Source: a virus
Taxonomy: Duplodnaviria; Heunggongvirae; Uroviricota; Caudoviricetes
Strand: one strand, 5' to 3'
Virus record (IMG/VR): IMGVR_UViG_3300008453_000586
DNA length: 17,907 nt
In this document: positions 1 through 11,545 of the stretch, piece after piece
How the letters are laid out: the number at the start of each line of letters is the position of its first letter
Position numbering within the stretch: position 1 is the stretch's first letter
The notes under the pieces: model-generated
Told to the model about the DNA's origin: nothing
The model's database searches: none
Seen by the model: only the letters and a program-made list of their open reading frames with translations
Translations under genes and position numbers: made by a program

Positions 1-5
1 AAAAT

Positions 6-28
6 GGGGAGCAATGCTCCCCTTTTTT
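6..28. terminator. Intrinsic terminator hairpin, probably bidirectional
   Basis: GGGGAGC-AAT-GCTCCCC stem followed by T6 on + and preceded by A4; sits at the stop of the minus-strand ORF ending at 27. Confidence 0.8.
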
Positions 29-317
29 ATTCTTCACTTACTTCATCAATGATATCTTTGACCACTTTTTTTGGTTTGTCGTCAGAGTTAGAATCACGTT
101 TACCCCAGATTTTATCTATACTGGCTAAACCTAAACAACCAAACGACAACATAGCCACAGCTTCTACCAAGATATCTGCTGGTTTTATATCACCGTGAGA
201 AAAACTATTAGCGTAAAGAGTTACACATAAAGTTAATCCAGCAATAATACCAACTAATCTTTTTGATGAAAAATTACCCGTTTCGTCTTGAAATACTTGA
301 CTGAAAAATTTTTTCAT
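27..317 (-). CDS. Small two-TM membrane protein (holin-like), 96 aa
   Basis: Start taken at internal ATG (MKKFFSQ...); the upstream part of the tracked ORF is non-coding-like and overlaps the next gene. Two hydrophobic segments after SSKRL and a charged C-terminus. Confidence 0.65.
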   Translation of the reverse strand: MKKFFSQVFQDETGNFSSKRLVGIIAGLTLCVTLYANSFSHGDIKPADILVEAVAMLSFGCLGLASIDKIWGKRDSNSDDKPKKVVKDIIDEVSEE

Positions 318-379
318 TTTGTTTTGTGTTATTGAAAATATTATGTTTGTGAAACTCTTAATAATAAATATCAAAAAAA

Positions 380-411
380 TTTGGTGGATTAGAATTATTT
401 TAGTATATTTG
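380..411 (+). promoter_or_regulatory. Bacteroidota sigma70-type promoter
   Basis: TTTG (380-383), 20 nt spacer, TATATTTG (404-411), 20 nt before ATG 432. Confidence 0.75.
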
Positions 412-431
412 CATTTTAAAAGTATAATATA

Positions 432-1655
432 ATGAGTAAACAAATTACACACGAATACCTTGTAGAGAAAGGTCTTATCCTGTTTGAAACCATCATTGGT
501 TCTCAAGCATACGGTACACAGACACCTACAAGTGACATAGACAAGAAATTTGTCTACATCCTACCTATGGATAACATTATGGGTACTGGTTACGTTGAAC
601 AAATTAACGTAAACAAGGATTACACTGGTTGGGAGATTAGACGTTTCCTTGAACTTATGGGTTCTAACAACCCAACTGTTCTGGAACTACTTAATAGCCC
701 AGAGGATTGTATTATCTATAAGCACCCGCTTTTTGATGACATTCTTGCACATAAAGAAGATTTTATTACAAAGATTTGTAAGGATTCTTTTGGTGGTTAT
801 GCAAGACAGCAAATCAAAAAAGCCAAAGGTCTTAACAAGAAACAAAATTGGGAAAAAGACAAAGTGGTTCGTAAAGACCTATTGGATTTCTGTTATGTTA
901 TTGAAGGTGAGAAATCAATCCCATGGAGAAAATGGAATAAAGGTAGATACGATGAAAAATTCATAGGTGCTGTAAACATACCAAACGCTAGAGATGTTTA
1001 CGCATTATTCTACGATAAAACTGCTTATATGCTCCATTCAACCGATATTCATGAGGATACTAGGGAAACATATAAAAAAGTCCTAAAAGATGCTGGTAAA
1101 CCAATGGGTTTAGGGTACAAAGGACTTGTCAATACTGGTCATGAAGATGAGGATGGTAAAATTAACTACGGTATTTCAAACCAACTACGTCTTTCTAGTA
1201 TTCCTAAAGGTGAGAAGTCAATCTGTACAATCGTTTATAACAAAGACGGTTATTCAGAACACTGCAAAGATTACAAAGAATACCAAGAATGGCTTGAAAA
1301 CCGTAATGAAGCTCGTTACGTTGAAACTCAAGAACACGGTCAAAAAATCGATGGTAAAAATATGATGCACTGTATGCGTCTTATTAGAATGGCTACGGAG
1401 ATTGGTGAAGGTAAAGGTATCATTGTAAGACGACCAGATGCTCAAGAACTTCTAGCAATCAGACGTGGTGAAGTTGATTTGGATTCGCTCATTGACATCG
1501 CTGACAAAGCCATTGAAAACATGGATGAAGTATTTCAAAATTCAAACCTACCAAACAATGTTAATAAAGGTTTGGTGAACGCTCTTTTGGTTAATATTAG
1601 AAGAGAATTCTATGGTCTACCGATAGCAGCTACAACACTTGAAAAAAGACTTTAA
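432..1655 (+). CDS. DNA polymerase beta-superfamily nucleotidyltransferase, RlaP/Nuc-transf-like
   Basis: GSQAYG...SDID motif near the N-terminus, WEIRRFLELMGSNNPTVLELL and KNMMHCMRLIRMA segments typical of this family. Confidence 0.8.
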   Translation: MSKQITHEYLVEKGLILFETIIGSQAYGTQTPTSDIDKKFVYILPMDNIMGTGYVEQINVNKDYTGWEIRRFLELMGSNNPTVLELLNSPEDCIIYKHPLFDDILAHKEDFITKICKDSFGGYARQQIKKAKGLNKKQNWEKDKVVRKDLLDFCYVIEGEKSIPWRKWNKGRYDEKFIGAVNIPNARDVYALFYDKTAYMLHSTDIHEDTRETYKKVLKDAGKPMGLGYKGLVNTGHEDEDGKINYGISNQLRLSSIPKGEKSICTIVYNKDGYSEHCKDYKEYQEWLENRNEARYVETQEHGQKIDGKNMMHCMRLIRMATEIGEGKGIIVRRPDAQELLAIRRGEVDLDSLIDIADKAIENMDEVFQNSNLPNNVNKGLVNALLVNIRREFYGLPIAATTLEKRL

Positions 1656-1656
1656 G

Positions 1657-2175
1657 ATGAATATATTTGACGCACCAAAAGATTGTATCAGAACCAACAG
1701 TGGTTTATATATGAATGTATTTGAACCAACACTGGAGATGATACAAATAGAAGACATAGCCCATGCGCTATCTTCGTTACCAAGATTCGGAGGACATTTG
1801 AATCAACACTATTCAGTTGCTCAACATAGCGTAATGTGCGCTATGAGAGCGACTAGTTTAGAAGATAAAAGAGCTGCTTTACTGCATGACGGTAGCGAAG
1901 CGTATATGTTAGATATCCCAACCCCTATAAAAGCCAAACTACCAGATTACAAAATGTATGAAAGTAATTTAATGGCTAAGATAGCTGAGAAATTCGAATT
2001 TGAGTTTCCATTGTCTGATAACGTTCATGCGATTGACCGTGAAATGCTTTTGCATGAATGGGAAAATTTAGTTGTGAATGAAAACGATGAGTTTGAATGT
2101 TGGGACCACGCAAGAGCCAAGAAAGAGTTCTTGGATATGTATAAAGTTTTATTCGAAGAAACTGTTGTTGTCTAA
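1657..2175 (+). CDS. HD-domain phosphohydrolase (YfbR/YfdR-like nucleotidase)
   Basis: IAHALS..PRFGGH...YSVAQHS...ALLHDGSEAY motifs; ATG 1 nt after the upstream stop codon (coupled). Confidence 0.85.
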   Translation: MNIFDAPKDCIRTNSGLYMNVFEPTLEMIQIEDIAHALSSLPRFGGHLNQHYSVAQHSVMCAMRATSLEDKRAALLHDGSEAYMLDIPTPIKAKLPDYKMYESNLMAKIAEKFEFEFPLSDNVHAIDREMLLHEWENLVVNENDEFECWDHARAKKEFLDMYKVLFEETVVV

Positions 2176-2472
2176 CAAAAATTGTATATTTTCATCGGCT
2201 GTTTTACAGTCATCTAGAAAGGAGAATACTTGCTCATTTGTAAGTGTTCTCCATTCATTTTTAGCTTCGGTTTTGATTTGATATTTTCTATGTAACCATT
2301 GCTCCACTTTTAAATGGTTTTTAGTTTCATATTTTCTATGTAGACTAATTTTATTTGGGTTACCAGTTTGCAGTTGTTTTACACGTTTATTTGGGTCATT
2401 TTTGGTAATACCAATCTTGTAGGATTCATTCCCATCAAAATCTATTTGTAACAAAAGGTATACGTATCCCAT
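2149..2472 (-). CDS. GIY-YIG nuclease, T5orf172/MUG113-like
   Basis: VYLL...YKIGIT..P.KR.KQLQTGNP...E..LH.....EW pattern; convergent 27-nt overlap with the HD gene. Confidence 0.8.
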   Translation of the reverse strand: MGYVYLLLQIDFDGNESYKIGITKNDPNKRVKQLQTGNPNKISLHRKYETKNHLKVEQWLHRKYQIKTEAKNEWRTLTNEQVFSFLDDCKTADENIQFLLDNNSFFE

Positions 2473-2528
2473 AATCATAAATATAAGAAAGTTTTTAGGT
2501 TTTGTCAATATTTATAGTAAAAAACACT

Positions 2529-3125
2529 ATGAAATCATTGATAAAATTTTTGGTTAGGGAAAGCATTGAAGAAGAAATTAGACAAAAGGGTGAACTAGGT
2601 ATGGGTAGAGACCATATCGTATACCCTTTTGAAAAAGACCCTTCTAAAGTAATCAAAATTGCGTATGTTGGTGAATGGGGTAAACCAGTTGGTAGCGGTG
2701 TTTTAAAAGCTAGTCATATCGAAAAAATGTTAGATTATCCAGACATATTCCCAAAAGTTTACAAACACAACGATAGATATGCCATTATAGAGAAATTAAA
2801 TACCGATGAAATTGAAAACGATGATGAAATCCTATATGATGTAGTTTCAAAATATGATTTAAGTTTATTTAACTCTTCTTCAACATTATCTGCAATTGAA
2901 GAAGTTTTTTGGAGAGGCGCAAAAAACCGTGAATTGTTACATAAATTACGTGAGTTAGTAATCAATGATAAAGATTTAGAACCATACGAAAGAACACTAA
3001 CAATAGATTATATTGATTTATTTCTTAAAATCATAGAACAAATACCAAATGCATCTGGTCTAGATATTCATTCTGGAAATATTGGTTATGATTTTAGTGG
3101 TAATTTGAAGTTATTGGATTTTTAA
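2529..3125 (+). CDS. Minimal protein-kinase-like protein
   Basis: Gly loop LGMGRDHIVY, VIKIA lysine, catalytic-loop-like DIHSGNIG, terminal KLLDF; N-terminal MKSLIKFLVRE motif. Confidence 0.65.
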   Translation: MKSLIKFLVRESIEEEIRQKGELGMGRDHIVYPFEKDPSKVIKIAYVGEWGKPVGSGVLKASHIEKMLDYPDIFPKVYKHNDRYAIIEKLNTDEIENDDEILYDVVSKYDLSLFNSSSTLSAIEEVFWRGAKNRELLHKLRELVINDKDLEPYERTLTIDYIDLFLKIIEQIPNASGLDIHSGNIGYDFSGNLKLLDF

Positions 3126-3147
3126 GATATTTATAATAAAAATATTG

Positions 3148-3729
3148 ATGAAAACGTTTATAAAACAAAAACTTAGAGAATCTTTATTGGGAGAAGAACA
3201 ATTAAACGAAGTTAATTGGAAAGGGTTAGCGGCTGGTGCTGCAATGACGCTTGGTACGTTGGGTGCGCAAGGTCAAACAACTCAACCAACAACGACTGAA
3301 CCAACAACTCAAACAACAACTCAAAAACCAATGTTTGGTACACCAGAACAAAGAGCTGCTGCCAAACAAAAAAGAGAAGCTCAACGTAGAAAGAATTATG
3401 AAAATTTTATAAAAGGTGCGTATATAAAAAATTTCGTTGAAGTTGTTGACGAAGAAGAGTTTAAATCAAGTTGTAATTCAACTATGTCTCAAGAAGCTGA
3501 TTATTTAGATGGAACATCTTTTGAAATGCCAGATATTATTTATAGAGAGTTAGAAGATGGTACTAAATTAAAAATAAGTTTAAAAAAATATCAAAAGTAT
3601 ATAAAAAATCAAGCCAAACAAGATGATGTTGCATTAGATGGTTTACAAGGTCCTAGCTTTAAAGCTACTAGTTGTGGTATATCAAAAGCCGCTGCAAAAC
3701 AAGATAAAAAAGATTGGTCAAAAAAATAA
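3148..3729 (+). CDS. Hypothetical protein with N-terminal MKxxIKxxLRE motif, hydrophobic segment and Thr/Gln-rich linker
   Basis: ATG at 3148; KGLAAGAAMTLGTLGAQG followed by QTTQPTTTEPTTQTTTQ low-complexity repeat. Confidence 0.65.
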   Translation: MKTFIKQKLRESLLGEEQLNEVNWKGLAAGAAMTLGTLGAQGQTTQPTTTEPTTQTTTQKPMFGTPEQRAAAKQKREAQRRKNYENFIKGAYIKNFVEVVDEEEFKSSCNSTMSQEADYLDGTSFEMPDIIYRELEDGTKLKISLKKYQKYIKNQAKQDDVALDGLQGPSFKATSCGISKAAAKQDKKDWSKK

Positions 3730-3759
3730 TAATAACAATAAACTAAAAAAACAAAAACA

Positions 3760-3978
3760 ATGGGATTAAACAAAGAACAAATTTTATCAATCATCAGACA
3801 AGTATTAACAGCTACTGGTGCGATTTTAATTACAGCTGGTGTTATGAAAGAAGGAATGACCACAGAAATTCTAGGTACAATTATGACTCTTATATCAGCA
3901 GTATGGTCTATAGTTGATAAAACAGACGCTAATATTGTCAAAAAATTTGATAATATTCAAGCAAAATTAAAAAAATAA
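3760..3978 (+). CDS. Small two-TM protein, putative holin
   Basis: 72 aa with two hydrophobic helices and a basic C-terminus. Confidence 0.6.
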   Translation: MGLNKEQILSIIRQVLTATGAILITAGVMKEGMTTEILGTIMTLISAVWSIVDKTDANIVKKFDNIQAKLKK

Positions 3979-3986
3979 AAAAATAA

Positions 3987-4029
3987 TTGCAAAAAAACTT
4001 GACTTGTATTAAAACTTTTAGTATATTTG
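3987..4029 (+). promoter_or_regulatory. Host-type promoter heading tRNA array 1
   Basis: CTTG (3998-4001), 20 nt, TATATTTG (4022-4029); 3987-4015 is identical to 8078-8106. Confidence 0.75.
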
Positions 4030-4075
4030 CACATATTTATTAATCAACGGGGTAAAACCCACAAAAAAACAAGAA

Positions 4076-4153
4076 ATGAAAAATTTATTTAACTTAGAAG
4101 TCCTTTTAGTCTTATGTCTACTTTTAGTGGATAGGGTGGGTTATATTTGTTAA
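4076..4153 (+). CDS. Putative attenuator leader peptide 1 (MKNLFNLEVLLVLCLLLVDRVGYIC)
   Basis: ATG...TAA, 25 aa, below the ORF-track cutoff; Leu x8, Val x4, Cys x2; lies between promoter and terminator. Confidence 0.7.
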   Translation: MKNLFNLEVLLVLCLLLVDRVGYIC

Positions 4154-4177
4154 TGATTTTTCATAATTATAATAATT

Positions 4178-4209
4178 AAAACCCATTTAAGAAATTAGAT
4201 GGGTTTTTT
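4178..4209 (+). terminator. Intrinsic terminator/attenuator before array 1
   Basis: ACCCATTTAA-GAAA-TTAGATGGGT stem plus T6; 5' arm can alternatively pair with 4134-4142. Confidence 0.8.
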
Positions 4210-4222
4210 GTTTAAACATAAT

Positions 4223-4303
4223 GCCGTGATTCCTGAGTGGTCAAAGGGAGCGGACTGCAAATCCGCTGCGAAAGCTTCGTGGGTTCGAATCCCTCTCACG
4301 GCT
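4223..4303 (+). tRNA. tRNA-Cys(GCA) with long variable arm
   Basis: GCCGTGA/TCACGGC acceptor, GCGGA-CTGCAAA-TCCGC anticodon arm, U73, GC-GAAA-GC variable hairpin. Confidence 0.85.
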
Positions 4304-4317
4304 CTATAAGAGAAAAA

Positions 4318-4623
4318 ATGATGATGGAAAAAAACGAAATTAAAAAAGACTTGTATAAGTCAAAAAATCTGGCTAAGTTTAGCCACTACGTCAGCGGAAA
4401 CTTATATTACAAAGTTGAGCTACAAGATGGGCTGTATCAGTTCCCAATAAAAACTGTTGAAAAGAAATATGTGATGGATACTCGTGAAGTTGAAAAGATT
4501 CCAACACTGGTGTTAGCCGAAGATTTAGGTACCACAACATTTGATGCCGAAATAAAAGGTTCAGAATTAATAAGATGGATTGAAAGAGCCATCGACAATG
4601 AAGACTTCATCAAGGTAGGTTAA
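4318..4623 (+). CDS. Hypothetical protein
   Basis: Start at the ATG run 4318/4321/4324; the tracked upstream extension overlaps tRNA-Cys. Confidence 0.7.
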   Translation: MMMEKNEIKKDLYKSKNLAKFSHYVSGNLYYKVELQDGLYQFPIKTVEKKYVMDTREVEKIPTLVLAEDLGTTTFDAEIKGSELIRWIERAIDNEDFIKVG

Positions 4624-4636
4624 TTCCTACCCAACC

Positions 4637-4711
4637 GCACCCATAGCTCAGTTGGTTGAGAGCGCTTGTTTTACACGCAAGAGGTCACTGGTTCGAATCC
4701 AGTTGGGTGCA
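4637..4711 (+). tRNA. tRNA-Val(TAC)
   Basis: GCACCCA/TGGGTGC acceptor; CTTGT-TTTACAC-GCAAG anticodon arm; GGTTCGAATCC T arm. Confidence 0.92.
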
Positions 4712-4720
4712 CAACCACTT

Positions 4721-4750
4721 GGCCGAGTGGTGGAATGGTAGACACGCGGG
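4721..4750 (+). pseudogene. 5' half of tRNA-Leu (direct repeat of 5214-5244)
   Basis: GGCCGAGTGGTGGAATGGTAGACACGCGGG matches the 5' end of tRNA-Leu(TAA) except a 1-nt indel; it stops in the anticodon stem. Confidence 0.8.
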
Positions 4751-4784
4751 ATGACTTTTCTATCATATCTACATATTTATTAGT

Positions 4785-5210
4785 ATGGAAGATATAGAAT
4801 TCATCAAAGTGTGTCAAGAATCTGACACCATGGCAAAGGCGGCTGCAACTCTAGGGTTGCATTTTAATACCTTTAAACGTAAAGCAGTTAAATTAGGTTG
4901 TTACGAACCAAATCAAGCTGGTAAAGGTATTACTAAAAAAGATAATGGTAATAAAATACCATTAAAAGAAATATTAGAGGGTAAACACCCTTATTACCAA
5001 ACTAATAAATTAAGAAAAAGATTAATTAGTGAAGGTTACAAAACTGGCGAATGTGAAATTTGTCATATTACTGAATGGAATGGTCAAGCAATTACAATTG
5101 AGCTAGACCACATAGACGGTAATAGAAACAACCATTATTTAGAAAACTTGAAAATGTTGTGTCCAAACTGTCACAGTCAGACACCAACGTTTAGAGGTAA
5201 AAAAAGATAG
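4785..5210 (+). CDS. HNH homing endonuclease
   Basis: CEIC...ELDHIDGNRNNHYLENLKMLCPNCHSQT zinc-binding HNH motif. Confidence 0.92.
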   Translation: MEDIEFIKVCQESDTMAKAAATLGLHFNTFKRKAVKLGCYEPNQAGKGITKKDNGNKIPLKEILEGKHPYYQTNKLRKRLISEGYKTGECEICHITEWNGQAITIELDHIDGNRNNHYLENLKMLCPNCHSQTPTFRGKKR

Positions 5211-5213
5211 AAT

Positions 5214-5299
5214 GGCCGAGTGGTGGAATTGGTAGACACGCGGGGTTTAAGCCCCCGTGCTCAGTAATGGGCGTGAGGGTTCGAGTCCCTCCTCGGCTA
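5214..5299 (+). tRNA. tRNA-Leu(TAA)
   Basis: CGGGG-TTTAAGC-CCCCG anticodon arm, long variable arm, A73. Confidence 0.92.
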
Positions 5300-5304
5300 C
5301 AAAT

Positions 5305-5388
5305 GGCCAGATGGCGAAACAGGTAGACGCGCAAGACTCAAAATCTTGTGTCCGCAAGGACGTGTGGGTTCGATTCCCACTCTGGCTA
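5305..5388 (+). tRNA. tRNA-Leu(CAA)
   Basis: CAAGA-CTCAAAA-TCTTG anticodon arm, GTCC-GCAA-GGAC variable arm. Confidence 0.92.
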
Positions 5389-5419
5389 CAATAACGTATT
5401 AATTAAAAATTATGAAAGT

Positions 5420-5557
5420 ATGAATTTTGTATGTTGTAAATGTGGAGAAATAATCCACGGACCTTCAATGGTAGTAAATAATAAAATATTACACTTAGAT
5501 TGTGTCAATAAAATAAAAAAAGAAAAAGAAGAAGACGTTAAATTGGAAGAAGTTTAA
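5420..5557 (+). CDS. Small putative zinc-binding protein, 45 aa
   Basis: CCKC...HLDC (CxxC/HxxC); ATG at 5420. Confidence 0.5.
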   Translation: MNFVCCKCGEIIHGPSMVVNNKILHLDCVNKIKKEKEEDVKLEEV

Positions 5558-5572
5558 CATAAAACAATAATA

Positions 5573-5764
5573 ATGAGAGTAACATTCAAATATATCAGCT
5601 TGAAATACTATCCTTTAAACAAGATAGGGTGGTGGATATGGTATTTCAAAAAATACAGTTCTATCAAAGGGTTCAACATTAGAATCTTTGGGTGTCATTT
5701 CAATGTGAGGGAAAACAATGCTACTGCCAAGATTATTAAACAAATCCAAGATAGGAAAAAATAA
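5573..5764 (+). CDS. Hypothetical protein, 63 aa
   Basis: ATG with A-rich leader; fills the gap between tRNAs. Confidence 0.5.
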   Translation: MRVTFKYISLKYYPLNKIGWWIWYFKKYSSIKGFNIRIFGCHFNVRENNATAKIIKQIQDRKK

Positions 5765-5768
5765 GATT

Positions 5769-5849
5769 GCCCGTGTGGTGGAATGGTAGACACGGCACGT
5801 TTAGAGCGTGTTCCCGAAAGGGGTGCGAGTTCGAGTCTCGCCATGGGTA
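5769..5849 (+). tRNA. tRNA-Leu(TAG)
   Basis: GCACG-TTTAGAG-CGTGT anticodon arm, CCC-GAAA-GGG variable arm. Confidence 0.92.
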
Positions 5850-5856
5850 CAAAAAT

Positions 5857-5931
5857 GGGTATGTAACTCAGTTGGTTCAGAGTGCTTTCCTTACAAGGAA
5901 GAAGTCGGGGGTTCGAATCCCTCCATACCTA
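5857..5931 (+). tRNA. tRNA-Val(TAC)
   Basis: GGGTATG/CATACCT acceptor; CTTTC-CTTACAA-GGAAG anticodon arm. Confidence 0.9.
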
Positions 5932-5935
5932 CTAA

Positions 5936-6015
5936 AAGATAGTTTCAGCAAACTAAACGGTTAAAATTTTGTCCTAAACACGAAACGAAGTGGTTCAATC
6001 CCACAAAACTATCTT
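5936..6015 (+). ncRNA. tRNA-fragment-like RNA closed by a stem carrying TTCAGCA
   Basis: AAGATAGTTT/AAACTATCTT closing stem; inner TTTTGT-CCTAAAC-ACGAAA hairpin and GTGG-TTCAATC-CCAC T-like arm; ends resemble 15275-15406. Confidence 0.55.
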
Positions 6016-6021
6016 GTACCT

Positions 6022-6104
6022 GCCGCTGTGGTGGAATGGTAGACACGCCAGACTAAGAATCTGGTGCCCGAAAGGGCGTGCTGGTTCGAGTCCAGTCAGC
6101 GGTA
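6022..6104 (+). tRNA. tRNA-Leu(AAG)
   Basis: CCAGA-CTAAGAA-TCTGG anticodon arm, Leu-type D arm and long variable arm. Confidence 0.9.
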
Positions 6105-6121
6105 CGAATTATTGGTAAAAT

Positions 6122-6150
6122 AAAAAGGGGTTATTAAAACCCCTTTTTTT
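6122..6150. terminator. Bidirectional terminator closing array 1 and the convergent gene
   Basis: AAAAAGGGGTT-ATTA-AAACCC-T8. Confidence 0.75.
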
Positions 6151-7648
6151 ATATTTTTATTTTTTTAGTGATAACACTATTGTTCTTCGTTTGTGCTACA
6201 ACAATGTACAGACCTTCCCTTAAAACAGATAAATCCAAATCTTCTGAAACTAACTGACCATACAAAGTGTATACCTTAACCTTAATAATTTCATCATCTT
6301 GTATATATATTCGCTTATTTACTATGTTTAAAGTTGCTACTGTATATGTTCGTAGTAAATCATTAAAACCTTCAGTGGTCCATGTATTCAAATTAGATGT
6401 TTGAATAGAATATAATCTATTGTTAAGCATAGGGTCTGGTAAATTAAGGTATAATTTATACGTACCCACTGGTAACCCTAAAGTTGTTAAGTTAGTAGTA
6501 ATGTTATAACTTGTTGACGTACATCTTTTAATATCGCTATCTATTTCAAAAGAATAATTTACATTTGTGCTAGTATTTTTACACACCAAAAATGCTTTTC
6601 TAGTTTTAAACAAATTAGCATACCCATAATTACCTATGTTAATTGTAAGAACACCATTGGTAATGTTTGAAGAATTTAACCTCAAATTATAACCTAAGTT
6701 TCTTTGCATGGTTGTAAAACAACCATTGGTTTGCCAGTTTGATATAACTGTTGGGAAATAATCTTTATTGATAAGACTCCAATTAAATCTATCCATTTCA
6801 ATCATAGCGTTTGAACAATCAGTTCTAGGGGCGTTGACCATATTACTTTCACCGCTTACTGGGTTATTAAAAGTGTTGGTTTGCCAATATGTTATGTCGC
6901 TAGAAGTAGGCTGTCCTTGTGAACTATTAACTACAAAGGTACCACTATCACCCCACGTTCCTAAAAATGAGTCATTGTAGAAACCTATTCTTCCGATAAA
7001 TGTGTTTCCATACATTTTTTGTTTAGCGAAAATATACCTAACTTGTAATGGAATTGAAGAATTAAAAGAACTAATCATTCTATCCATTACTTCTTTTCTG
7101 TTGCTCCACTGTGTGGTTGTCAATACTGTAAAATTACCATCGCCAAATTCAGAAGAACCTGTATAGTACCATTCACCATACTTACCTATAAACCCAGCTT
7201 GAATACTAACAATAACATCTCTGTTAGAGTTTATTACTGGTGCTAATTGCTGAATGTGAGCAAGTATTTGAGCTTTAGTTGGTTGGAAAACAGGTGTAGT
7301 ACTTGATGATGAATATGTAAATCTAACAATTACTTTAGCACCAGCATTCCTAATTCTATTAAAATCAGTTTGCATATTTGTTAAGTATGTTGATGTGATT
7401 GGTATACCTGTAATAAAATCTCTCAAAAAGAATTGTCTTTGTATTACGGTAATGTTTTCGTTGGTTCTATACCCACTCAATGTAGATTGAGATAATAGAT
7501 TATAACCACCAGACGAACCAGTAGAAGTGTAACGATAAAAACCTTTTTCTGGGTTAGAGATAACTACGTTGGATGAAGCGTAAGTTACATTTTGACTAGT
7601 TATCATTACTGAGAATGATAAAAATAATAGTAATAAAAATTTTTTCAT
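6149..7648 (-). CDS. Secreted DUF4874/DUF4832-like putative glycoside hydrolase with T9SS-type C-terminal domain
   Basis: Signal peptide; NPEKGFY, RFTY, QAGFIGKYGEW, GFYNDSFL motifs; C-terminal KVYTLYGQLV...GLYIV...TKKIKI. Confidence 0.7.
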   Translation of the reverse strand: MKKFLLLLFLSFSVMITSQNVTYASSNVVISNPEKGFYRYTSTGSSGGYNLLSQSTLSGYRTNENITVIQRQFFLRDFITGIPITSTYLTNMQTDFNRIRNAGAKVIVRFTYSSSSTTPVFQPTKAQILAHIQQLAPVINSNRDVIVSIQAGFIGKYGEWYYTGSSEFGDGNFTVLTTTQWSNRKEVMDRMISSFNSSIPLQVRYIFAKQKMYGNTFIGRIGFYNDSFLGTWGDSGTFVVNSSQGQPTSSDITYWQTNTFNNPVSGESNMVNAPRTDCSNAMIEMDRFNWSLINKDYFPTVISNWQTNGCFTTMQRNLGYNLRLNSSNITNGVLTINIGNYGYANLFKTRKAFLVCKNTSTNVNYSFEIDSDIKRCTSTSYNITTNLTTLGLPVGTYKLYLNLPDPMLNNRLYSIQTSNLNTWTTEGFNDLLRTYTVATLNIVNKRIYIQDDEIIKVKVYTLYGQLVSEDLDLSVLREGLYIVVAQTKNNSVITKKIKI

Positions 7649-8379: not shown

Positions 8380-8469
8380 ATGAGAACTTTTGCTAACATA
8401 TTTGATTTTGCATTTTTTGCTGCCGAGGAGGATTGCTTCTCTGGAGGGTCGTGTGTTGCCAATAGTTAA
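8380..8469 (+). CDS. Putative attenuator leader peptide 2 (MRTFANIFDFAFFAAEEDCFSGGSCVANS)
   Basis: ATG...TAA, 29 aa; Phe x6, Ala x5, Glu x2, Asp x2; directly upstream of a terminator and array 2. Confidence 0.7.
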   Translation: MRTFANIFDFAFFAAEEDCFSGGSCVANS

Positions 8470-8497
8470 CAGTTAGAAATAACTCAACCATAGTAAC

Positions 8498-8528
8498 AAG
8501 CCTGACCCTAATAAGTCAGGCTTTTTTT
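8498..8528 (+). terminator. Intrinsic terminator/attenuator before array 2
   Basis: AAGCCTGAC-CCTAATAA-GTCAGGC-T7; 5' arm can alternatively pair with 8445-8454. Confidence 0.85.
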
Positions 8529-8541
8529 ATGTACAAAAATT

Positions 8542-8612
8542 GGAGCCATAGCTGAGGGGTTTAGCGCTGGCCTGAAGAGTCAGAGACACGGGGTCGACTC
8601 CCGTTGGTTCCA
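8542..8612 (+). tRNA. tRNA-Phe(GAA), G54 in T loop
   Basis: CTGGC-CTGAAGA-GTCAG anticodon arm; T arm ACGGG-GTCGACT-CCCGT. Confidence 0.82.
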
Positions 8613-8648
8613 CAAGAAAAAAAAAATTAAAAAAAAGTTCATTGAAAA

Positions 8649-8679
8649 TTTGGAGATTAAAAAATAAGTTGTATATTTG
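8649..8679 (+). promoter_or_regulatory. Internal host-type promoter in array 2
   Basis: TTTG (8649-8652), 19 nt, TATATTTG (8672-8679). Confidence 0.7.
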
Positions 8680-8693
8680 CAACGAAATTAAAA

Positions 8694-8766
8694 GGTACCT
8701 TAGCTCAGTTGGTAGAGCACTGCACTGAAGATGCAGGTGTCCCCAGTTCGAATCTGGGAGGTACCA
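8694..8766 (+). tRNA. tRNA-Phe(GAA)
   Basis: GGTACCT/AGGTACC acceptor; CTGCA-CTGAAGA-TGCAG anticodon arm. Confidence 0.93.
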
Positions 8767-8768
8767 CT

Positions 8769-8921
8769 AGGAATGTACGTTCAGCGGTCGAATTGGTCAT
8801 AAGAAATTATGGATGGTAAACAATTCGGGGGATGGGTTAAGTAATTAACTTGGGTAAAACATTTTCAGAACGACTCCCCTCATAAGGGAGAAGGTCACAG
8901 GTTCGAATCCTGTCATTCCTA
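8769..8921 (+). tRNA. tRNA(CAT) (elongator Met or Ile2) with an 85-nt D loop
   Basis: AGGAATG/CATTCCT acceptor, CGTTC/GAACG D stem, CTCCC-CTCATAA-GGGAG anticodon arm, canonical T arm. Confidence 0.75.
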
Positions 8922-8980
8922 CAAGGAGTAAGCCCCCGCGTAATCGCGATACGTGGGGAGTGCTGAAACGAAATAAGCAT

Positions 8981-9056
8981 GGCCCCGTCTTCTAAATTGG
9001 ACTAGGAAGCCACCCTTTCAAGGTGTGTAATGCGGGTTCGAATCCCGTCAGGGCTA
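8981..9056 (+). tRNA. tRNA-Glu(TTC)
   Basis: CACC-CTTTCAA-GGTG anticodon arm; canonical T arm; one acceptor mismatch. Confidence 0.85.
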
Positions 9057-9093
9057 CAATCTGGTTAAGATTCCAGTAATCAAAAATCTAAAT

Positions 9094-9166
9094 GGTCTAT
9101 TCGTCTAGTTGGTCAGGACGTGCCCCTTTCACGGGTAAAACACGGGTTCGAATCCCGTATAGACTA
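9094..9166 (+). tRNA. tRNA-Glu(TTC)
   Basis: GGTCTAT/ATAGACT acceptor; TGCCC-CTTTCAC-GGGTA anticodon arm. Confidence 0.92.
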
Positions 9167-9261
9167 CAATTAAGGAACGTGTGCAAATGCAATGGTCGGC
9201 ACAGTAACTAGGTGAAATAATAGACGTTGTTGACTTGAGAGTGGAACAGAAATTCTAATTT

Positions 9262-9341
9262 GGTCTATGGGGCTGCTTGGTGTGGCTACCTGACTGTCAC
9301 TCAGGAAAAACAGGTCGGTTCGAATCCGATATAGACCGCCA
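9262..9341 (+). tRNA. tRNA-Asp(GTC) with encoded CCA
   Basis: CCTGA-CTGTCAC-TCAGG anticodon arm, G73-CCA, 8-nt variable loop. Confidence 0.88.
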
Positions 9342-9350
9342 AATTAAATT

Positions 9351-9424
9351 CGAGGTAAGGTCCACTGGCGAAGGATGCACGCCTGTCACGCGTTGCGAAC
9401 TGGGTTCGAATCCCAGTATCTCGG
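9351..9424 (+). tRNA. tRNA-Asp(GTC)
   Basis: CGAGGTA/TATCTCG acceptor, ACGC-CTGTCAC-GCGT anticodon arm, G73. Confidence 0.85.
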
Positions 9425-9526
9425 CAAAAAAGGTGAGAGAAAAACTAAGTAAGTCTGCCAACCGAAAAGTGAAGTATTAAGGCCATTCTGCTCAATATAT
9501 GATGGCAGTTGTATTGAGAGTAGTTA

Positions 9527-9597
9527 AAGTGTATCGTCTAGGGGCTTAGGACGCTGGCGCGTAGCTGGAAACATTGGTTCGAAACCAATTGCACTTC
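9527..9597 (+). ncRNA. tRNA-Glu-like body lacking a 7-nt anticodon loop
   Basis: AAGTGTA/TGCACTT acceptor, Glu-type D arm GTCT..GGAC, CTGGC-GCGTA-GCTGG (5-nt loop), 4-nt variable loop, normal T arm. Confidence 0.65.
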
Positions 9598-9604
9598 TAA
9601 ATTT

Positions 9605-9678
9605 GGGGACTTAGCTCAGCTGGCTAGAGCGTCTGCCTTGCACGCAGAAGGTCGCGGGTTCGACTCCCGCAGTCTCCA
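9605..9678 (+). tRNA. tRNA-Ala(TGC)
   Basis: TCTGC-CTTGCAC-GCAGA anticodon arm; G3:U70. Confidence 0.93.
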
Positions 9679-9686
9679 CGATTGCT

Positions 9687-9810
9687 AACACGGTCGCTTC
9701 GTGTTGAAATTGTCAGATAACGTGCGGATAGAGGCAATCTCTGGAAAAAGAAGCACTGACTGGAAGGAAAGTCCGCAACTAAACCTGCTTACACTTTGGA
9801 ATGTAAAGTG
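9687..9810 (+). ncRNA. Unassigned structured RNA
   Basis: AACACG/CGTGTT, GTCA..GTGC/GCACTGAC, GCGGA/TCCGC and TTACA/TGTAA helices between two tRNAs. Confidence 0.35.
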
Positions 9811-9815
9811 ATTTT

Positions 9816-9937
9816 GGGCACGTGGTGTAATGGTAGCATGTTAAAAAACAAGTCATAACCTGACAAGGTTATCTTCAGCATTAAATGTTAATTTTCCTGT
9901 CACGAAAAAGATGTAGGTTCGAATCCTGCCGTGTCCG
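9816..9937 (+). tRNA. tRNA-Asp(GTC) with a 51-nt insertion at positions 26-29
   Basis: GGGCACG/CGTGTCC acceptor, G73, TTTTC-CTGTCAC-GAAAA anticodon arm; insert 9841-9891 carries ATAACCT-GACA-AGGTTAT-C-TTCAGCA. Confidence 0.75.
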
Positions 9938-9944
9938 CACAGAA

Positions 9945-10004
9945 ATGGTTAGTTGGTGTAACCGCTAATGGATTGACGAATCTATTAAGTTGCATCAACG
10001 CCAT
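9945..10004 (+). ncRNA. Long hairpin RNA between tRNAs
   Basis: GTTGGTGTAAC (9952-9962) pairs with GTTGCATCAAC (9989-9999); inner GATT-GACG-AATC hairpin. Confidence 0.35.
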
Positions 10005-10009
10005 AGGAA

Positions 10010-10082
10010 GGGGCCATAGTTTACTAGGCGAAAATAGTTGGCTTGCACCCAGCAGAACTCGGTTCGAATCCGAGTGGCTCCA
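10010..10082 (+). tRNA. tRNA-Ala(TGC)
   Basis: GTTGG-CTTGCAC-CCAGC anticodon arm; G3:U70. Confidence 0.88.
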
Positions 10083-10098
10083 CAAAAAAGAAAATAAA

Positions 10099-10129
10099 TT
10101 TGTTTAATTCAAATTAATGATTATCTTTG
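10099..10129 (+). promoter_or_regulatory. Host-type promoter
   Basis: TTTG, 19 nt, TATCTTTG. Confidence 0.65.
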
Positions 10130-10153
10130 TACCCTAATTTAAAAATATTAGAT

Positions 10154-10681
10154 ATGAAAATTAATAGAATTGAAGGTGTAAGTTATTCAGAACCAGGAGA
10201 AGGTGAATTTATTGTATGTGTTTTAGACCCATCAATAAATGGTGAGGAATATGTAAAGGATTTGAATGATAGTATTGAGGAATACAACAAAGATGTTGAA
10301 TTATTTGAAAGTAAGTTGCAAGAGTTTAAAGAATTGTACAAAACAAATCTTTCATTTGAAGCAATTACTGGTGTTGCGTTATTAAACGAACGTGAACCAA
10401 AATACCCATCAACGACACCGTTGGGTTTTAAAAATGTTCAAACAGCTTTTCCAGAAATTACGCTTGAAAGAGAAAGAAGAAAAACTGTTAACAAAGAAAA
10501 TAGGTTAGTTTATGATACGTTTATAAATGAAGCTAGAGAAAATGTTAAAAGAGAAATTGAACCATTCAAACAAGCTTTAATCGCTAAATGGCCTAAGTTT
10601 AAAAGATGGGCGGCTAGTGATTGGGGTAGAACAATTTGGTACAAATTTGAATTAACAACTTTTAAATATGTGTCAGAATAA
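10154..10681 (+). CDS. Hypothetical protein, partly coiled-coil
   Basis: ATG at 10154 downstream of the promoter; no recognisable motif. Confidence 0.7.
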   Translation: MKINRIEGVSYSEPGEGEFIVCVLDPSINGEEYVKDLNDSIEEYNKDVELFESKLQEFKELYKTNLSFEAITGVALLNEREPKYPSTTPLGFKNVQTAFPEITLERERRKTVNKENRLVYDTFINEARENVKREIEPFKQALIAKWPKFKRWAASDWGRTIWYKFELTTFKYVSE

Positions 10682-10684
10682 AAT

Positions 10685-10756
10685 GGGGTCATAGCTCAAC
10701 GGCTGAGCGCTTCCCTTGCACGGAAGAGGATGTGGGTTCGAATCTCATTGGCTCCA
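10685..10756 (+). tRNA. tRNA-Ala(TGC)
   Basis: CTTCC-CTTGCAC-GGAAG anticodon arm; G3:U70. Confidence 0.9.
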
Positions 10757-10777
10757 CTAAATTTAAAATTAAAAATC

Positions 10778-11545
10778 ATGAAAACTAGAATTGCCCCATC
10801 ACCAACGGGCAAATTTCATTTAGGGACATTACGTACTGCTTTATTTAACTATTTGTTAAGTAAATCAAACAATGGTGTTTTTATCCTAAGAATAGACGAT
10901 ACAGATTTGTCTAGGAACAACGATTCAGATATAGACTTCATTCATCAACAAATGAAACATTTTGGTTTAGACTATGATGTAACATTTAACCAAAGCAGCA
11001 GACTTGATAGATACAAACAAGTTGCAACTGCCATAGGGTTCAAAAAAGATGATGGAACGTTAAACGTAAACATGGGTGACTATGATATGGTTATTCTTAG
11101 AGATAACGGTTATCCAACCTATAACTTCGCATCAATATTAGATGACTATGATTATGACATTACTGACATTATTAGAGGTGTAGACCATATTACCAACTTA
11201 CCAAAGCAACAAACGTTGTGGGATATGATTTGCAATGTATATGGTCAAAAAAAATTTCCAAATGTACAACACGCTGGGTTATTGTTTTATAAAGGTGCCA
11301 AATTATCTAAAAGAACTGGTAACTGTACTACTGATGATTATAATGATTATGACGTTGATGCGTTACTAAATTGGTTATTCAAATTTGGTTGGTCACATCC
11401 TAACGCTAATTTTGACAAAGATTTTCCAATTTTAAAGATGGGTGATATGATAAAACACTTTATAGATGGTCATATTGTAAAGTCGAATTCAAGTATTGAC
11501 ATAAACAAATTAATATGGTTAAATAAAAAACATAAAACAAAATAA
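10778..11545 (+). CDS. Minimal glutamyl-tRNA synthetase-like protein (catalytic domain only; GluRS/GluQ family)
   Basis: RIAPSPTG..HLGT (HIGH), LRIDDTD, IIRGVDH, KLSKR (KMSKS), LLNWLFKFGWS; 255 aa with no anticodon-binding domain and no Cys/Zn insertion. Confidence 0.88.
   Translation: MKTRIAPSPTGKFHLGTLRTALFNYLLSKSNNGVFILRIDDTDLSRNNDSDIDFIHQQMKHFGLDYDVTFNQSSRLDRYKQVATAIGFKKDDGTLNVNMGDYDMVILRDNGYPTYNFASILDDYDYDITDIIRGVDHITNLPKQQTLWDMICNVYGQKKFPNVQHAGLLFYKGAKLSKRTGNCTTDDYNDYDVDALLNWLFKFGWSHPNANFDKDFPILKMGDMIKHFIDGHIVKSNSSIDINKLIWLNKKHKTK

Follow-up and report, generated by a model that had tools for sequence, protein, structure and literature searches.

Is the 51-nucleotide (nt) insert of a viral tRNA-Asp gene an intron that is cut out, or a part of the RNA that is kept as a handle for a protein? 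The question was raised by the gene at positions 9816-9937, called handle-Asp here, in a DNA stretch of 17,907 nt (the window, meaning this whole stretch) from a virus of the Caudoviricetes, IMG/VR record IMGVR_UViG_3300008453_000586. An earlier note made from the sequence alone had described the insert as an undescribed mini-intron or ribonucleoprotein (RNP) handle. The present analysis indicated that the insert is most likely a handle rather than an intron. The favoured reading, which was given a probability of roughly 0.58, is that the gene yields a tRNA-Asp(GUC)-shaped RNA permanently keeping the 51-nt protein handle, most likely bound by a ring protein of the Ro60 fold from the DUF2828/DUF7788 family, and that this RNA acts as a Y-RNA-like adaptor.

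Anatomy and conservation of the insert

The fold of the region 9816-9937 is that of tRNA-Asp(GTC). The Rfam tRNA model RF00005 matched it over model positions 1-71 with 42 bits, the gathering score being 29, and skipped the insert. The insert spans 9843-9893 and lies between tRNA nt 28 and nt 29; its excision gives a standard cloverleaf with an anticodon stem of 5 base pairs (bp). The sequence of the insert reads exactly as the earlier note had described it, with an A-rich stretch of 12 nt, a 7-bp hairpin with a GACA loop, a C, TTCAGCA and 13 nt, and its boundary indeed slides by 2 nt owing to a T run. The parsing of the motif as one nucleotide followed by TTCAGCA needed revision. These letters are present, but folding revealed that CUU at 9873-9875 is able to pair with AAG of the 5' spacer over a UC bulge, by which the handle helix can be extended by 3 bp, and the segment is better parsed as CUU followed by CAGCA. 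The constant single-stranded core is CAGCA and not TTCAGCA, because CUU can pair with AAG and the corresponding UUU lengthens the stem of a second RNA of the window, the mini element. A helix followed by CAGCA was thus found at 9866-9880 (AGGTTAT-CTT-CAGCA), its 5' strand ATAACCT lying at 9855-9861.

The same module is carried by two sibling RNAs of the window, a permuted tRNA-Lys(CTT) and the mini element; the former had been described in the earlier note, which counted three TTCAGCA elements in all. Both were found to be real, each closed by a 7-bp stem on the + strand. In the mini element the UUU counterpart of CUU lengthens the closing helix to 10 bp, and acceptor and D arm are absent. The hairpin of handle-Asp corresponds to the stem that closes the permuted forms, with its two strands covalently joined. 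The motif TTCAGCA alone is only mildly in excess in the window (7 found, 2.4 expected, equalled in 3 of 200 shuffles). All of its intergenic copies on the + strand have a perfect 7-bp helix strand ahead of them at the same offset, and the chance of this was estimated at about 1e-7 (0.016 x 0.016 x 0.0004). The trio of handle RNAs (Asp, permuted Lys and mini element) is present again in the related contigs G001 and G006.

The conservation of the insert was analysed with four homologs obtained from pattern scans (L001/L021, L020, L108 and L109). The anticodon arm showed 0 of 15 variable columns, the 5' spacer 1 of 12, the C with TTCAGCA 1 of 8 (L001 reads TCCAGCA), the 3' spacer 6 of 14 and the other tRNA parts 15 of 56; CAGCA was invariant among the homologs. 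Drift of the insert as in neutral decay, which the earlier note had named as the outcome that would speak against a functional module, was not seen, the hairpin having 0 of 18 variable columns (window, L001 and L020 included) against 14 of 19 for the flanks. The invariance of the hairpin in L001 and L020 is no selection effect, because both were retrieved independently of the hairpin sequence. The stems of the tRNA body carry compensatory changes among the homologs, namely GGGCACG/CGTGTCC, GGACGTA/TGCGTCC and GGGCGTA/TGCGCCC in the acceptor stem and GTAGG/CCTGC, GTGGG/CCCAC and GCGGG/CCCGC in the T stem, and the D stem also changes in a compensatory manner. The covariation count on a further alignment (A2) agrees with the hairpin; its rows had been preselected for the hairpin, so this count was not taken as evidence. 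By these column counts, the insert module is more strongly constrained than the tRNA body.

CAGCA-handle RNAs beside DUF2828 genes

The architecture of handle-Asp recurs on RNAs encoded beside DUF2828 genes. For the counts of helix-plus-CAGCA sites, 80 viral loci around such genes were fetched. The strand of the gene carried 974 sites of the closing form, to which the permuted Lys and the mini element belong, and the opposite strand 386, against 215 and 129 in reversed-sequence controls; the sites peaked sharply at ≤2 kb upstream of the DUF2828 gene. Handles of the hairpin form, to which handle-Asp belongs, numbered 140 and 47 on these strands. The family signature has two parts, a helix that begins with [AG]AG[AG][TC] and a G behind its 3' strand. 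Of the distinct candidates beside a DUF2828 gene, 68 of 212 had this signature, as did 3 of 147 far away and 2 of 220 on the opposite strand. In the window it is borne by the permuted Lys and by the mini element (AAGAT...ATCTT-G), and it reappears in the counterparts of both in G001 and G006. The majority of the handle RNAs encoded next to DUF2828 genes measure 50-70 nt and hold no complete tRNA. As the mini element likewise cannot give a tRNA, the handle is taken to be an autonomous unit.

Many hairpin-form handles upstream of DUF2828 genes sit in complete non-permuted tRNAs, among them L096 and L050 (both Asn GTT) and L103 and L072 (both Thr TGT). The layout of these DUF2828-linked tRNAs is nt 1-28, 6-11 nt, a hairpin of 7-9 bp, 1-3 nt, CAGCAA, 10-12 nt and nt 29-76, and that of handle-Asp is 12 nt, 7 bp, 3 nt, CAGCA and 12-13 nt, with the break at 28/29. 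A branch at 28/29 with a 5' spacer of 6-14 nt and a 3' spacer of 10-13 nt, as characteristic of the family, is present in handle-Asp, and so is the family's helix of 7-10 bp with single-stranded CAGCA 1-3 nt behind it. The chance that a random 51-nt insert holds a perfect 7-bp hairpin and CAGCA within 3 nt was estimated at about 3e-5. The hairpin form also resembles a closing form with joined ends, examples of the family reading GTCTT-G...AAGAC and handle-Asp ACCT-GACA-AGGT with one compensatory pair.

Scanning for CAGCA together with the Asp anticodon arm identified a 14-kb phage contig, L023 (IMGVR_UViG_3300031993_003631), in which the Asp body, the handle and the presumed partner gene occur together. 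Its permuted tRNA-Asp(GTC) at about 5040-5176 is closed by GAGATAC/GTATCTC followed by ATA-CAGCAA, and its anticodon and T arms are identical to those of handle-Asp at 36 of 37 positions. The DUF2828+DUF7788 gene of 491 amino acids (aa) at 8422-9897 lies 3.3 kb from it. The protein has >5,000 relatives at E ≤1e-10. Fold comparison was needed for its classification, because the DUF2828 alignment, used as a profile against the PDB, gave no sequence-level match. For its AlphaFold model (predicted local distance difference test score, 77.7), only Ro60/TROVE structures matched over the full length; the top 13 PDB matches had template modelling (TM) scores of 0.39-0.58 by query at probability 1.00, PDB entry 9KOP being the best, and isolated vWA domains ranked next. 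On this model, the DUF2828/DUF7788 protein of L023 has the Ro60 fold. The tRNA array of L023 at 2000-7600, upstream of the DUF2828 gene, holds about 9 closing-form handle RNAs of 90-134 nt, including the permuted Asp(GTC), Thr(TGT) and Tyr(GTA).

A search of 50,697 phage records found the DUF2828 family in 696 of them, including Felix O1-like and Listeria phages. The Salmonella phage Mushroom (NC_041923.1, L145, Felixounavirus) encodes gp127, a DUF2828 protein annotated as 'RNA-binding protein', followed by three closing-form RNAs on the gp127 strand (AGACC...(A)CAGCAA...GGTCT-G) at about 5710-5790, 6335-6400 and 6420-6545, which fill gaps of the opposite-strand tRNA array.

In the proposed mechanism, the 7-bp helix and the single-stranded CAGCA would form a handle that leaves the anticodon stem on its 5' strand, between nt 28 and 29; a Ro60-fold DUF2828/DUF7788 ring protein would dock on this handle, and the RNA would display its whole tRNA-Asp body. 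Since handle-Asp has its ends in the acceptor stem and lies within a tRNA array, RNase P and RNase Z would be expected to release it as they do an ordinary tRNA, leaving a free 3' end. The permuted relatives would obtain a free 3' end only after cleavage in the acceptor loop. In vivo, the Y RNA YrlA of Mycobacterium smegmatis is cleaved by RNase P and acquires CCA (Chen et al. 2014, PMC4201824); by the same route, permuted handle tRNAs whose acceptor stem has 7 bp would turn into two-piece molecules with a free 3' end. As a guess, the RNA may tether the ring protein to tRNA-recognising enzymes or bait anticodon nucleases within phage tRNA repair and maintenance.

In an extended version of this reading, considered tentative and rather unlikely, the ring protein would carry a processed tRNA-Asp body, possibly chargeable and with its CCA end free, and the particle would serve as a bait or sensor for host anticodon nucleases or for other defences directed at tRNA, or as a platform bringing damaged tRNAs to the repair enzymes of the phage. 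If so, permuted and non-permuted genes would lead by two routes to one two-domain RNP, and viral tRNA-display particles of this kind would form a new class, apart from the Ro60/Y-RNA/PNPase machine.

Table 1. Parts of handle-Asp and its sibling RNAs in the window
Feature	Positions	Strand	Composition or basis
tRNA body nt 1-28	9816-9842	+	Acceptor GGGCACG, D arm GTGT/GCAT, G26, TT as first 2 nt of the anticodon stem
5' spacer of insert, A-rich 12 nt, AAAAAACAAGTC	9843-9854	+	Sequence reading
Handle hairpin ATAACCT-GACA-AGGTTAT, 7 bp, GACA loop	9855-9872	+	Sequence and folding
C and TTCAGCA, read as CUU and CAGCA core	C 9873; TTCAGCA 9874-9880	+	Sequence and folding
3' spacer of insert, 13 nt, TTAAATGTTAATT	9881-9893	+	First half variable, last 7 nt constant
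tRNA body nt 29-73	9894-9937	+	Anticodon arm TTC-CTGTCAC-GAA-AA (GTC), variable loop, T arm, acceptor CGTGTCC, discriminator G 9937
Permuted tRNA-Lys(CTT)	15275-15406	+	Closed by AAGATTA/TAATCTT, then T-TTCAGCA-A; ends at tRNA position 28/29
Mini element	5936-6015	+	AAGATAG(TTT)/(AAA)CTATCTT, 10-bp closing stem AAGATAGTTT/AAACTATCTT, CAGCAA; only anticodon-like and T-like hairpins

Alternative readings of the insert

Several observations weigh against the adaptor reading. The flanks of CAGCA are off the consensus A-CAGCA-A, handle-Asp having T-CAGCA-T and L001 C-CAGCA-G; beside DUF2828 genes the preceding base was A in 57 cases, G in 10 and T in 1, and the following base was A in 66, T in 1 and G in 1. 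A covariance model of 27 DUF2828-linked hairpin handles (R1) did not report 9843-9893 at E ≤10; as a short model of 54 positions with 0.6 bit each it is weak, and its top match in a four-source search, at 18 bits, was a place in L023 where two closing-form RNAs meet tail to head. In the family a DUF2828 gene usually lies at most a few kb away; neither a DUF2828 nor a TROVE gene was found in the window or in the fragments of its relatives (G001, G006 and others), which reach 18.8-32.7 kb upstream of handle-Asp. The complete genome of a 634-kb relative, LR745206.1, encodes a canonical TROVE Ro60 and lacks CAGCA-handle tRNAs, its CAGCA candidates being at chance level on both strands; for the lineage of handle-Asp itself this genome is uninformative. 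The confidence in the adaptor reading is limited because the motif deviates and because the partner gene in this phage is presumed. The two handle types are similar, a helix strand ...AGAUAC being followed by UUCGAA in one and by (A/U)CAGCAA in the other, and the UUCAGCA of the window may be a lineage-specific variant.

These same observations favour the alternative that the handle is real and its reader is not of the Ro60 fold. The handle would then be an RNase processing or stability signal, a site for another RNA-binding protein or an RNA-RNA contact, and the DUF2828 link would be inapplicable to this lineage. The Y-CAGCA-K variant is rare beside DUF2828 genes, R1 misses the insert, a partner gene is lacking in the 17.9-kb window and in the fragments of relatives, and the complete relative pairs its TROVE protein with CGAA-type RNAs. 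This alternative is nevertheless judged unlikely, as it has to account for the full family signature on both closing-form siblings, which is nearly absent away from DUF2828 genes, for an architecture and spacings equal to those of the DUF2828-linked tRNAs, and for L023, which combines the same Asp body with a canonical ACAGCAA handle and a DUF2828 gene.

Unlike the handle half, the intron half of the earlier proposal was not borne out. In such a reading the insert would be a new kind of small tRNA intron, the module being excised at 28/29 by a phage or host endonuclease and the halves joined by a phage RNA ligase to give a decoding tRNA-Asp, and the permuted forms would mature by the same cut-and-join chemistry. 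It is in accordance with the standard cloverleaf, with an anticodon stem of 5 bp, that results when 9843-9893 is removed, and with the RlaP-type nucleotidyltransferase encoded in the window. A relaxed AAAA/TTTT arrangement with TTA and TAA bulges can also be drawn at the junction; such an arrangement is trivial in AT-rich sequence. A strict bulge-helix-bulge (BHB) motif, with 3-nt bulges on both sides of a 4-bp helix between two outer helices, was absent at the insert junction, as had been stated before, and the strict motifs that were found would cut inside the D arm or elsewhere. We know of no splicing endonuclease in bacteria or phages. With 51 nt the insert is indeed too short for a group I or group II intron, and in 9700-10010 no Rfam intron or ribozyme family matched at E ≤10, the tRNA family being the only match. 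Four RNA libraries with small word shares were available over 9500-10700, and none of them covered 9816-9937 or showed a joint, which weighs on neither side. The splicing reading is further opposed by the three intact tRNA-Asp(GTC) genes called nearby by ARAGORN, by the unusually weak anticodon stem (four A-U pairs and one G-C pair) and by the invariant sequence of the hairpin, which is more than an excision signal requires. The same handle occurs on many RNAs without a complete tRNA, and splicing of the mini element could yield nothing, because it has no acceptor or D arm. What supports the handle is the same module, at the same position and with the same spacings, on RNAs beside DUF2828 genes, tRNA-less RNAs included. 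The small intron is accordingly quite unlikely.

A working tRNA-Asp that retains the insert as an extra arm and is charged and used on the ribosome was considered very unlikely. The acceptor, D, anticodon and T arms are all intact, the anticodon loop is invariant, the gene is located in a tRNA array, and the discriminator G fits Asp identity. The ribosomal helix H69 contacts tRNA at the junction of D stem and anticodon stem, however, and the 51-nt branch would sit at this contact site; three ordinary Asp tRNAs are moreover present in the window, and the same handle is borne by RNAs without an acceptor stem. Finally, decay of the tRNA gene into a pseudogene, with an insertion that is accidental or selfish, is hardly credible: phage tRNA arrays do contain pseudogenes and ARAGORN does not call the gene, but the conservation of the insert exceeds that of the tRNA body and, by far, that of the flanks, which contradicts decay; the stems change in a compensatory manner, and three RNAs and three related contigs share the module.

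Relation to known systems and genomic setting

To our knowledge, tRNA-mimicking Y RNAs are known only as permuted, anticodon-less modules bound by canonical Ro60. Handle-Asp is most likely a new, non-rearranged form of such RNAs, a complete and unpermuted tRNA-Asp with its anticodon. Published work describes Ro60/Y RNA particles, the tRNA-like YrlA and, in some jumbo phages, TROVE proteins 'with a tRNA-like partner' (PMC4201824, PMC7824862, PMC12135203). The YrlA Y RNAs with Ro60/Rsr (RF02553; PMC4201824), which include those of mycobacteriophages, are alike in combining a protein-binding stem with a tRNA-like domain and in having a Ro60-fold ring partner, which is presumed for handle-Asp. The end state of M. 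smegmatis YrlA, which RNase P cuts and which gains CCA, equals that proposed for the non-permuted handle-Asp. The sibling permuted Lys matched RF02553 with 37.8 bits (E 3e-7 in a 191-nt search), which is below the gathering score of 69. For handle-Asp this model gave no match in 9700-10010 at E ≤10, and none reached the gathering score in the window. Unlike YrlA, whose ends pair as the protein-binding stem, handle-Asp is non-permuted, ends in an acceptor stem and has its handle as a capped hairpin; it keeps a full anticodon arm with GUC, its motif is CAGCA and not of the CGAA/GGUCCGA type, and its presumed partner is DUF2828/DUF7788 and not TROVE.

Thermus phage phiLo encodes a Ro60-fold protein together with phage-encoded RNAs, Yrl1 and Yrl2 (PMC12135203; PDB 9KOP, 9L5Y), but these are stem-bulge-stem hairpins with CGAA and no tRNA body, and the protein is of the TROVE type. 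Among disrupted tRNAs, the archaeal and algal ones (BHB introns, split and permuted; Soma et al. 2007; PMC3400036) resemble the present case in the non-canonical position of the insert and in the permuted tRNA with the same break in the same genome; handle-Asp differs in having no BHB and in that the shared helix and CAGCA unit also exists without any tRNA. Group I introns of bacterial and phage tRNA genes also interrupt a bacterial-type tRNA gene, whereas the insert of handle-Asp has 51 nt against at least 200 nt, lies outside the anticodon loop and has no Rfam intron match. The CAGCA handle, the DUF2828 link and whole tRNAs, permuted or not, on such a handle were not found in the published literature searched, and the literature on permuted tRNAs in phages held nothing on phage genes of the handle-tRNA kind; the description of the module as undescribed therefore holds within that literature.

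The window encodes >20 tRNAs in arrays, the RlaP-type nucleotidyltransferase, a truncated GluRS and proteins with type IX secretion tails, and freshwater metagenomes share sequence words with it. The phage is uncultivated, and its genome is probably several hundred kb, because related IMG/VR contigs of 49-180 kb were estimated to be only 14-30% complete. ARAGORN called the 3 uninterrupted tRNA-Asp(GTC) genes of the window and did not call the handle-Asp gene at 9816-9937. The GluRS-like gene (10730-11545, +) lies 0.8 kb downstream of handle-Asp within a Glu/Asp/Ala tRNA array and encodes a GluRS catalytic domain of 271 aa that lacks an anticodon-binding domain, as GluQRS/YadB proteins do; the protein scored 215 bits with gltX_bact and 120 bits with GluQRS, both under the cut-off. 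YadB of E. coli glutamylates Q34 in tRNA-Asp, and a connection of the GluRS-like gene with handle-Asp is speculation. In the related contigs found through this gene (L002-L010), the tRNA array was mostly absent there, and the array of L009 had no CAGCA modules; this array, at 1-3700, holds Asn, Cys, Pro, Asp and Gln tRNAs of 84-94 nt with seemingly long variable arms.

The 135-nt spacer between tRNA-Ala and handle-Asp (9680-9815, +) is about 95% identical in L001 (9635-9771), while other tRNA flanks diverge. Contigs of one RNA library lie over 9625-9808, and G006 lacks this spacer at the equivalent place; the spacer may encode another small RNA. At 8769-8921 (+), the same array has a tRNA(CAT)-like gene with a D-loop insert of about 85 nt and no CAGCA handle; this gene represents a different kind of interrupted tRNA. 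In LR745206.1, a TROVE+vWA Ro60 gene of 483 aa follows a non-coding stretch of about 550 nt with two GAGATACTTCGA motifs (L111 860-1000, 1327-2778). These motifs correspond to the signature of CGAA-type Y RNAs reported from phage phiLo (PMC12135203), and the GAGATACTTCGA stretches are candidate RNAs of this type. ARAGORN found 59 tRNA genes in this genome, mostly in arrays at 342-345, 365-369, 388-390 and 407-408 kb; each array is dominated by few amino acids (e.g. His/Phe/Lys, Glu/Tyr/Gly, Asp/Pro/Gln), and the arrays of the window look alike.

With respect to its putative partner, the handle belongs to a second, unstudied family of Ro60-like proteins. If the pairing of handle and DUF2828/DUF7788 protein is true, a whole class of genes has been missed or mislabelled by tRNA gene finders and phage annotations, and 'interrupted' and 'permuted' tRNAs of phages need not mean splicing. 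A widespread phage RNP handling tRNA-shaped RNA would then become testable in cultured phages, for which Mushroom, a cultured phage carrying both handle RNAs and a DUF2828 gene, offers a laboratory system.
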